A DNA stretch of 64,000 nucleotides from assembly GCF_054482525.1 (NCBI RefSeq), contig NZ_CM137006.1; one strand, given 5' to 3'. This document shows positions 40,074 through 43,382 of this stretch, piece by piece; position 1 is the stretch's first letter; each line of letters starts with the position of its first letter. The notes beneath the pieces are model-generated. The model did not search any database, was not told where the DNA came from, and worked only from the letters and a program-made list of their open reading frames with translations. A program made the position numbers and the translations under genes.

Positions 40074-41735
40074 ATGATTAACCGTATCCGCGTAGTCACG
40101 CTGTTGGTAATGGTGCTGGGGGTATTCGCACTGTTACCGCTTATTTCCGGCAGTCTGTTTTTTTCTTCCCTTCACCATAGCCAGAAGAGCTTTGTGGTTT
40201 CCAATCAATTACGGGAACAGCAGGGCGAGCTGACGTCAACCTGGGATTTAATGCTGCAAACGCGCATTAACCTGAGTCGTTCAGCGGTACGGATGATGAT
40301 GGATTCCTCAAATCAACAAAGTAACGCCAAAGTTGAATTACTCGATAGCGCCAGGAAAACATTGGCCCAGGCAGCGACGCATTATAAAAAATTCAAAAGC
40401 ATGGCACCGTTACCTGAAATGGTCGCTACCAGTCGTAATATTGATGAAAAATATAAAAACTATCACACAGCGTTAACTGAACTGATTGATTATCTTGATT
40501 ATGGCAATACTGGAGCTTATTTCGCTCAGCCAACCCAGGGAATGCAAAATGCAATGGGCGAAGCGTTTGCTCAGTACGCCCTCAGCAGTGAAAAACTGTA
40601 TCGCGATATCGTCACTGACAACGCAGATGATTACCGATTTGCCCAGTGGCAACTGGCGGTTATCGCGCTGGTGGTGGTATTGATTCTGCTGGTGGCGTGG
40701 TACGGCATTCGCCGTATGTTGCTTACACCGCTGGCAAAAATTATTGCTCACATTCGCGAAATCGCCAGTGGTAACCTGGCGAATACCCTGACCATTGACG
40801 GGCGCAGTGAAATGGGCGACCTGGCGCAGAGCGTTTCACATATGCAACGCTCTTTGACTGACACCGTCACTCATGTGCGTGAAGGTTCAGATGCCATCTA
40901 TGCCGGTACCCGTGAAATTGCGGCGGGCAACACCGATCTTTCCTCCCGTACTGAACAGCAGGCATCTGCGCTGGAAGAAACTGCCGCCAGCATGGAGCAG
41001 CTCACCGCGACAGTGAAGCAAAACGCCGATAACGCCCGCCAGGCCTCGCAACTGGCGCAAAGTGCCTCCGATACTGCCCAGCATGGCGGAAAAGTAGTGG
41101 ATGGTGTAGTGAAAACGATGCATGAGATCGCCGATAGTTCGAAGAAAATTGCCGACATTATCAGCGTTATCGATGGTATTGCCTTCCAGACTAATATCCT
41201 CGCGTTGAATGCCGCTGTTGAAGCCGCGCGTGCGGGTGAACAGGGCCGTGGTTTTGCCGTGGTGGCGGGCGAAGTGCGTAATCTTGCCAGTCGCAGCGCC
41301 CAGGCGGCAAAAGAGATCAAAGCCCTCATTGAAGACTCCGTCTCGCGCGTTGATACCGGTTCGGTGCTGGTCGAAAGCGCCGGGGAAACAATGAACAATA
41401 TCGTCAATGCTGTCACTCGCGTGACTGACATTATGGGCGAGATTGCATCGGCATCGGATGAACAGAGCCGTGGCATCGATCAAGTCGCATTGGCGGTTTC
41501 GGAAATGGATCGCGTCACGCAACAGAACGCATCGCTGGTGCAGGAATCAGCTGCCGCCGCAGCTGCGCTGGAAGAACAGGCCAGTCGTTTAACGCAAGCG
41601 GTTTCCGCGTTCCGTCTGGCAGCCAGCCCACTCACCAATAAACCGCAAACACCATCCCGTCCTGCCAGTGAGCAACCACCGGCACAGCCACGACTGCGAA
41701 TTACTGAACAAGATCCAAACTGGGAAACATTTTGA
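40074..41735 (+). CDS. tar: Methyl-accepting chemotaxis protein II (aspartate/maltose receptor) Tar
   Basis: [21 protein letters not shown]..., HAMP + MCP signalling domain, C-terminal NWETF pentapeptide; 553 aa. Confidence 0.95.
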
Positions 41736-41780
41736 CGAGTATCTACTAACGCGGTCATTGCCGCCTGATGGGGAGCGTTG

Positions 41781-43382
41781 ATGTTTAATCGTATTCGAAT
41801 TTCGACCACGCTGTTTTTAATTTTGATTCTCTGCGGGATCTTGCAGATTGGCAGTAACGGCATGTCTTTTTGGGCATTTCGCGACGATTTGCAACGACTG
41901 AATCAGGTCGAGCAGAGCAATCAGCAACGTGCGGCATTAGCGCAAACTCGGGCGGTAATGTTACAGGCCAGTACCGCGCTGAACAAAGCGGGCACTCTGA
42001 CGGCGCTTAGCTATCCGGCGGATGACATTAAAACGTTGATGACGACGGCGCGCGCCAGTCTGACGCAATCCACCACGCTGTTTAAAAGTTTTATGGCGAT
42101 GACTGCGGGCAACGAGCACGTCAGGGCCTTTCAAAAAGAGACGGAGAAAAGTTTTGCCCGCTGGCACAACGATCTCGAACATCAGGCGACCTGGCTTGAA
42201 AGTAATCAACTTTCGGATTTCCTCACTGCGCCGGTGCAGGAATCACAGAATGCGTTTGACGTTAACTTTGAGGCCTGGCAGCTGGAGATCAACCATGTGC
42301 TGGAAACTGCCAGTGCGCAAAGCCAGCGTAACTATCACATTTCGGCGCTGGTGTTTATCAGCATGATTATTGTTGCAGCGCTCTACATCAGCAGTGCGCT
42401 GTGGTGGACGCGCAAGATGATTGTTCAACCACTGGCCATCATCGGTAGCCATTTTGACAGCATTGCTGCGGGTAATCTGGCGCGTCCGATTGCGGTGTAT
42501 GGTCGCAATGAGATCACCGCCATTTTTGCCAGTCTGAAAACCATGCAGCAGGCTTTGCGTGGGACGGTAAGTGATGTGCGTAAGGGAAGCCAGGAGATGC
42601 ACATTGGTATCGCGGAGATTGTCGCAGGCAATAACGATCTCTCAAGTCGTACCGAACAGCAGGCGGCATCGCTGGCACAAACGGCCGCCAGTATGGAGCA
42701 ATTAACCGCCACGGTAGGGCAAAACGCCGATAACGCGCGCCAGGCGTCGGAACTGGCAAAAAATGCCGCGACAACGGCGCAGGCGGGCGGTGTTCAGGTC
42801 AGTACCATGACTCACACCATGCAGGAGATCGCCACCAGCTCGCAAAAAATTGGCGACATTATCAGCGTTATCGACGGCATTGCTTTCCAGACCAATATTC
42901 TGGCCCTGAATGCGGCAGTGGAAGCGGCTCGCGCCGGAGAGCAGGGGCGTGGTTTTGCGGTAGTGGCAGGTGAAGTGCGCAATCTTGCCAGCCGTAGCGC
43001 GCAGGCAGCAAAAGAGATCAAAGGGCTGATCGAAGAGTCAGTCAATCGTGTCCAGCAGGGTTCGAAACTGGTGAATAACGCCGCCGCGACCATGACTGAT
43101 ATTGTCAGTTCGGTGACCCGCGTGAACGACATTATGGGAGAAATTGCTTCGGCCTCGGAAGAACAACGGCGGGGGATTGAGCAGGTTGCGCAGGTTGTCA
43201 GCCAGATGGATCAGGTGACACAGCAGAACGCCTCCCTGGTAGAAGAAGCGGCGGTGGCAACGGAACAACTGGCGAATCAGGCCGACCATCTTTCTTCGCG
43301 CGTGGCGGTATTTACCCTTGAAGAACATGAAGTAGCACGACATGAGTCGGCGCAGTTACAAATTGCGCCAGTGGTATCCTGA
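41781..43382 (+). CDS. tap: Methyl-accepting chemotaxis protein IV (dipeptide/pyrimidine receptor) Tap
   Basis: MFNRIRISTTLFLILILCGILQIG..., MCP domain paralogous to Tar, no NWETF; 533 aa. Confidence 0.95.
   Translation: MFNRIRISTTLFLILILCGILQIGSNGMSFWAFRDDLQRLNQVEQSNQQRAALAQTRAVMLQASTALNKAGTLTALSYPADDIKTLMTTARASLTQSTTLFKSFMAMTAGNEHVRAFQKETEKSFARWHNDLEHQATWLESNQLSDFLTAPVQESQNAFDVNFEAWQLEINHVLETASAQSQRNYHISALVFISMIIVAALYISSALWWTRKMIVQPLAIIGSHFDSIAAGNLARPIAVYGRNEITAIFASLKTMQQALRGTVSDVRKGSQEMHIGIAEIVAGNNDLSSRTEQQAASLAQTAASMEQLTATVGQNADNARQASELAKNAATTAQAGGVQVSTMTHTMQEIATSSQKIGDIISVIDGIAFQTNILALNAAVEAARAGEQGRGFAVVAGEVRNLASRSAQAAKEIKGLIEESVNRVQQGSKLVNNAAATMTDIVSSVTRVNDIMGEIASASEEQRRGIEQVAQVVSQMDQVTQQNASLVEEAAVATEQLANQADHLSSRVAVFTLEEHEVARHESAQLQIAPVVS

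Follow-up and report, generated by a model that had tools for sequence, protein, structure and literature searches.

The tandem chemoreceptor genes tar and tap of Escherichia coli have been studied as a model system since the early 1980s, and their paralogy, the signalling segment conserved between their products and the uneven occurrence of the C-terminal pentapeptide NWETF are textbook knowledge. Among the closest described systems is the tar-tap pair of the 'meche' operon of E. coli K-12, in which genes of 1662 and 1602 nt are separated by a 45-nt spacer. Loss of Tap in phylogroup B2 or uropathogenic E. coli was reportedly described by Lane et al. in 2006 and by Borziak et al. in 2013. Moreover, Tar-Tap hybrids are known from the laboratory, and those of Slocum, Halden and Parkinson, from 1987, are said to have been spontaneous tar-tap recombinants. 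Laboratory hybrids of this kind combine an N-terminal Tar with a C-terminal Tap part across the conserved cytoplasmic region and thus have the architecture of the natural fusions presented below, but they were obtained or constructed in laboratory strains of K-12, whereas the natural fusions come from frog and pig isolates. For chimeric chemoreceptors PMC2229510 refers to both the 1987 paper ('Hybrid Escherichia coli sensory transducers...', J Bacteriol 169:2938) and that of Weerasuriya et al. (1998).

The window analysed here is a 64,000-nt stretch of contig NZ_CM137006.1, whose plus strand carries motB, cheA, cheW, tar, tap, cheR, cheB, cheY, cheZ and flhB between 36.5 and 47.7 kb. Over positions 40074-43382 it matches E. 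coli PCN033 (NZ_CP006632.1) with 100% and K-12 MG1655 with 98.2% DNA identity. The features of the tar-tap region are as follows.

40016..40042, plus strand: predicted promoter of the sigma-28 (FliA) type for tar-tap-cheRBYZ, TAAAGTTT-N11-GCCGATAA, a consensus match with zero mismatches
40074..41735, plus strand: tar, aspartate/maltose chemoreceptor (MCP II), 553 aa, C-terminus ...QDPNWETF (ORF, translation, Pfam, PCN033 annotation)
41718..41732, plus strand: codons of the NWETF pentapeptide (CheR/CheB tether) of Tar, directly before the stop that ends the translation after ...QDPNWETF
41736..41780, plus strand: tar-tap spacer, 45 nt, with a GGGGAG ribosome-binding site read from the sequence
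41781..43382, plus strand: tap, dipeptide chemoreceptor (MCP IV), 533 aa, C-terminus ...QIAPVVS, without NWETF (ORF, translation, Pfam, PCN033 annotation)

The original prediction had named these genes as the tandem paralogues tar and tap, in agreement with both Pfam and the RefSeq annotation of PCN033, which lists them as 'tar: methyl-accepting chemotaxis protein II' and 'tap: methyl-accepting chemotaxis protein IV' with the same gene boundaries. Both proteins contain the TarH (Tar 139 bits, Tap 143 bits), HAMP (46 and 38 bits) and MCPsignal (PF00015; 211 and 189 bits, with a cut-off of 34.6) domains, all scoring far above cut-off, which places them in the transmembrane four-helix-bundle class of methyl-accepting chemotaxis proteins. 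Near-identity to the annotated genes and conserved synteny, cheW-tar-tap-cheR, identify them as the orthologues of E. coli Tar (MCP II) and Tap (MCP IV). They are intact and separate in the window and show no fusion.

Tar and tap are the first two genes of the canonical E. coli tar-tap-cheR-cheB-cheY-cheZ operon and would be co-transcribed from the predicted sigma-28 promoter. The tar ATG follows the consensus match at a distance of 32 nt, and the cheW terminator hairpin (39955-39981) closely precedes the match. The pattern TAAAGTTT-N11-GCCGATAA is the class 3 flagellar promoter consensus; when up to three mismatches are allowed, there are 5 matches in the window against 0.64 expected. As judged from this promoter, the operon probably belongs to the class 3 flagellar (sigma-28) operons. 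A terminator scan of the plus strand found none in the tar-tap spacer.

On the basis of its C-terminal sequence Tar is assigned to the pentapeptide receptors and Tap, which ends in APVVS, is not. The same division exists among the other K-12 receptors, Tsr having and Trg lacking NWETF. That Tar but not Tap carries the pentapeptide had been put forward in the original prediction as a known functional asymmetry, and both the translations and the literature on NWETF as the CheR/CheB tether bear this out (PMC4692393, PMC7390727). The K-12 pair has the same genes in the same order, with the same lengths, spacer, domain architecture and NWETF asymmetry, and only allelic differences separate it from the pair in the window. 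Thus, the tar-tap pair of the window is canonical, intact and already known. What the present analysis adds to known biology is small, namely natural tar::tap fusion alleles.

We then compared the two genes with each other. A string of 56 amino acids is common to residues 361-416 of Tar and residues 359-414 of Tap and constitutes the maximal identical run. The following direct repeats connect the genes.

41154..41321, plus strand: tar copy of the 56-codon segment (hairpin-tip 'highly conserved domain'), 56/56 aa and 141/168 nt identical to the tap copy
42855..43022, plus strand: tap copy of the 56-codon segment, partner of 41154..41321
41153..41173, plus strand (partner 42854-42874): longest exact tar/tap block, 21 nt (24 nt in K-12), crossover site of the ET474/PEC389 fusion
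41018..41035, plus strand (partner 42719-42736): second-longest exact block, 18 nt, crossover site of the ETEC4088 fusion
41307..41322, plus strand (partner 43008-43023): third exact block, 16 nt
40905..41414, plus strand: diverged direct repeat, tar arm, consisting of D2 (40905-41089, 74%) and D1 (41115-41414, 76%)
42606..43115, plus strand: diverged direct repeat, tap arm, at a spacing of 1701 from the tar arm

The shared 56-aa segment had been correctly described in the original prediction, as had its DNA, which opens with an identical run, here of 21 nt, followed by mainly synonymous differences. All of the 27 differing nucleotides are synonymous, 26 being third positions and one a TTG/CTG first position. 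The positions given for the segment were off by 1-4 nt, the true register being +1701. Calling the DNA of the two genes near-identical, however, was an overstatement: identity is 84% over the 168-nt segment, it drops to 76% and 74% over the extended repeats of 300 and 185 nt, and the longest exact block, 21 nt, barely exceeds the length of about 20 nt on which the prediction had been made to depend. In K-12, nucleotide 1101 of tar has the base found in tap, which is what extends this block from 21 to 24 nt. A 13-nt match between tar and tap that is out of register is also present.

The exact blocks are short (16-21 nt), and a match of 13 nt occurs outside the register as well, as might be expected of chance matches that have no mechanistic consequence. 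Against such an origin, the longest exact match between tar and codon-shuffled versions of tap is 11.1 nt on average and 15 nt at most, compared to the observed 21, 18 and 16 nt, and the three longest matches all lie in the +1701 register. The in-register exact matches therefore exceed chance. Moreover, the crossovers of two independent natural fusions, described below, fall exactly within the two longest blocks. Codon shuffling and crossover mapping thus refute a chance origin, to which we assign a practically negligible probability.

Besides unequal recombination, the original prediction had named gene conversion as a process for which the repeats could be substrates. Ongoing conversion between the adjacent genes would keep the DNA of the signalling segment identical, and tar and tap do lie in tandem, with the same orientation and a common register. 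We determined pS for individual segments by the Nei-Gojobori method and used K-12 tar, tap, tsr and trg as an unlinked-paralogue control. In the window, the 56-codon block of tar and tap has a dN of 0 and a pS of 0.65 (dS ~1.5), which is no lower than the pS of the flanking cytoplasmic segments (0.60-0.82). For K-12 the values are as follows.

tar-tap (tandem): pS of the 56-codon block 0.57, cytoplasmic DNA identity 0.689, longest exact run 24 nt
tar-tsr (unlinked): pS of the 56-codon block 0.59, cytoplasmic DNA identity 0.765, longest exact run 28 nt
tar-trg (unlinked): pS of the 56-codon block 0.60, cytoplasmic DNA identity 0.680, longest exact run 22 nt

The same hairpin-tip segment is conserved in tsr and trg, with 54/56 and 48/56 amino acids shared with Tar, DNA identities of 0.82 and 0.79 and comparable pS. 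Both genes are unlinked to tar, so that recombination with it would rearrange the chromosome and not produce a simple fusion. Concerted evolution should be visible as a pS well below that of the unlinked pairs or as long identical tracts. Neither was found for tar and tap, whose pS of 0.57-0.65 compares with 0.59-0.60 and whose longest exact tract is 21-24 nt, and the unlinked pairs match them in pS and equal or exceed them in the length of exact runs. The tandem layout therefore adds nothing detectable. In fact, the cytoplasmic DNA of tar is closer to that of tsr than to that of tap, and hence the tandem layout has left no homogenisation signal.

Synonymous identity within the block is nevertheless slightly above what independent codon draws predict, with 29 codons shared where 21.4 +/- 3.5 would be expected (P ~0.025) and 141 nucleotides shared instead of 129.8 (P ~0.006). 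We do not read this excess as conversion because the unlinked tar-tsr pair of K-12 shows it at the same level (138/168 nt identical). It is attributed to residual shared ancestry or site-specific codon preference rather than to conversion specific to the tandem, although a contribution of ancient micro-conversion is conceivable. The tap-state base at nucleotide 1101 of K-12 tar could likewise stem from micro-conversion or from plain mutation. With 27 synonymous differences in 168 nt and no exact tract beyond 21-24 nt, concerted evolution is largely refuted and in our view very unlikely; the segment-wise pS values and the comparison with unlinked tsr and trg led us to reject gene conversion. 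Tandem layout by itself does not homogenise paralogues.

Instead, we propose that purifying selection at the protein level holds the 56 residues constant, the hairpin-tip segment being the signalling part in contact with CheA, CheW and neighbouring receptors. The similarity between the DNA of tar and tap would then be the remainder left after near-saturated synonymous divergence, and not the outcome of recent homogenisation.

Recombination between the genes was searched for in 5426 complete E. coli genomes with a split query, in which a tar-specific piece from 5' of the homologous region was combined with a tap-specific piece from 3' of it, the region itself being omitted. A single joined place results only where ~1.7 kb between the two pieces is absent, and the search is thus independent of the junction. 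It recovered a tar::tap fusion in exactly three of the genomes.

ET474: frog faeces, China
PEC389: pig, Korea
ETEC4088: pig, Belgium

Each of them has a single 1608-nt gene between cheW and cheR, annotated simply as 'tar'. When compared to K-12-like parents, the ET474 allele fits one crossover within tar nucleotides 1080-1103, the 24-nt block, at 801 of the 803 diagnostic sites, and the ETEC4088 allele fits one crossover within nucleotides 945-962, the 18-nt block, at 802 of them. ET474 does not differ from PEC389 over 6608 nt; the three genomes therefore represent at least two independent fusion events. In each case exactly 1701 bp is deleted in frame, with the junction inside an exact identity block of 18-24 nt. 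The fused gene keeps the sensing, transmembrane and HAMP parts of Tar, gains the hairpin and C-terminus of Tap and lacks NWETF, and Tap itself is gone. The reciprocal product, a tap::tar duplication, was detected in none of the genomes in the junction search.

Repeat collapse is a common assembly error, and the fact that all three records annotate the gene simply as tar would also fit fusions that exist only in the assemblies. Yet with 74-76% identity and no exact stretch beyond 24 nt, the repeats are too dissimilar for a complete-genome assembly to have merged them. There are, in addition, two different junctions, each in frame and each explained by a single crossover at nearly all diagnostic sites. 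Furthermore, proteins exactly matching the two fusions occur on 71 and 28 contigs, drawn from several independent sources (NCBI, Logan and ENA), which argues against assembly artefacts. We consider such an origin extremely improbable. The repeats are thus substrates of unequal recombination, as the original prediction had it, with junctions in the 24-nt and the 18-nt block in only three genomes that go back to two events.

Starting from the observed gene identities, divergence pattern, natural fusions and crossover positions, we suggest that crossovers can occasionally take place at the exact blocks, which measure 16-24 nt and all lie 1701 nt from their partners. Either a RecA-mediated homeologous exchange nucleated there or slippage between short direct repeats without RecA could be responsible. 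RecA-dependent exchange is efficient from a minimum of ~23-27 bp, a value that Shen and Huang reportedly arrived at in 1986 for the minimal efficient processing segment. Because the crossover blocks are at or below this length, the choice between the two pathways is uncertain. The same shortness, together with flanks that are only ~75% identical, accounts for the rarity of the fusions. Identity blocks of 18-24 nt are nevertheless sufficient to direct rare rearrangements between paralogues of ~75% identity. Taken as a whole, the explanation in which selection keeps the segment identical, the remaining DNA similarity is left over from divergence and the blocks act as rare crossover points is in all likelihood correct.

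The 1701-bp deletion would produce an in-frame receptor that combines the sensing, transmembrane and HAMP parts of Tar with the signalling and adaptation C-terminus of Tap. Such a receptor would be expected to have the ligand specificity of Tar and to depend for its adaptation on the NWETF of Tsr, supplied in trans. The hybrids of Slocum et al. from 1987 are, by report, in line with this phenotype. It is further suggested by published work on low-abundance receptors and on the pentapeptide as a tether (PMC4692393, PMC7390727).

It is conceivable that the tar::tap alleles are not neutral or harmful accidents but a selected receptor variant, with retuned aspartate/maltose sensing and lost dipeptide taxis in certain animal-associated lineages, that recurs via the easily reached 18-24-nt blocks, but we regard this as unlikely. 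It concerns related genomes (3 of the 5426 complete genomes, and 99 contigs) and not the window.

The locus is affected by other lesions as well. A deletion of 1374 bp inside tap is found in 1059 of the 5426 genomes. It lies between two 8-nt repeats, whose positions in the window are as follows.

41900-41907 and 43274-43281: GAATCAGG repeats, 8 nt, the ends of the 1374-bp tap deletion

The deletion matches the loss of Tap that has been reported for phylogroup B2 and uropathogenic E. coli (PMC12623472, PMC3559539). Like the tar::tap fusions, this loss is a natural inactivation at the same locus, but it is confined to tap, leaves tar intact and does not involve recombination between the two genes. 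In the strain of the window tap is intact. Breakage of the locus in nature is thereby quantified, comprising a common tap deletion, rare 1701-bp fusions at the two longest blocks and a 222-nt deletion in tar. The last of these is a natural in-frame lesion inside tar, located at an imperfect 14-nt repeat.

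Of the 5426 complete genomes of E. coli, 1059 have a deletion of 1374 bp within tap; E2348/69 is one of them. The two sides of the deletion meet at a direct repeat of 8 nt:

41900-41907 and 43274-43281, inside tap (about 4326-4340 in comparison locus L001): direct repeat GAATCAGG, junction of the tap deletion

In these genomes tar is intact and the leftover tap is annotated as a pseudogene, in agreement with the published loss of Tap from B2/UPEC strains. The strain of the window has an intact tap.

A second deletion, of 222 nt and in-frame, is found within tar in strains 472, 673 and PI24. 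In strain 472 its junction falls between imperfect repeats:

about 41233-41251 and 41455-41473, inside tar (also in comparison locus L012): GAACAG(G/A)GCCGTGG, encoding EQGRG and EQSRG

The product, a Tar of 479 aa annotated merely as 'Tar ligand binding domain-containing protein', lacks the 74 residues directly past the hairpin tip. Judged from this missing segment, the shortened Tar of all three strains is probably a dead receptor.

Two of the tar::tap fusion isolates, ET474 from a frog in China and PEC389 from a Korean pig, are identical across 6.6 kb. In PEC389 flhDC, motAB, cheAW, cheRBYZ and flhBAE are otherwise intact, and several proteins around this locus (otsA, flhB and the fusion itself) carry consecutive lineage-specific WP accessions.

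Between the segments of tar (41154-41321) and tap (42855-43022) that encode the identical 56 residues, synonymous identity modestly exceeds the prediction from independent codon draws (P about 0.006-0.03). An equal excess is seen in the unlinked tar-tsr pair. The likely sources are a codon preference that is site-specific, or unsaturated ancestry, in the region coding for the hairpin tip.

The window contains further near-consensus matches to the sigma-28 promoter, each with 1-2 mismatches:

9520-9546, minus strand: predicted sigma-28 promoter
9639-9665, plus strand: predicted sigma-28 promoter
35430-35456, plus strand: predicted sigma-28 promoter

One of the three lies upstream of motA. The two near 9.5 kb form a divergent pair, which, going by the K-12 map order, we take to be the fliC/fliD region.
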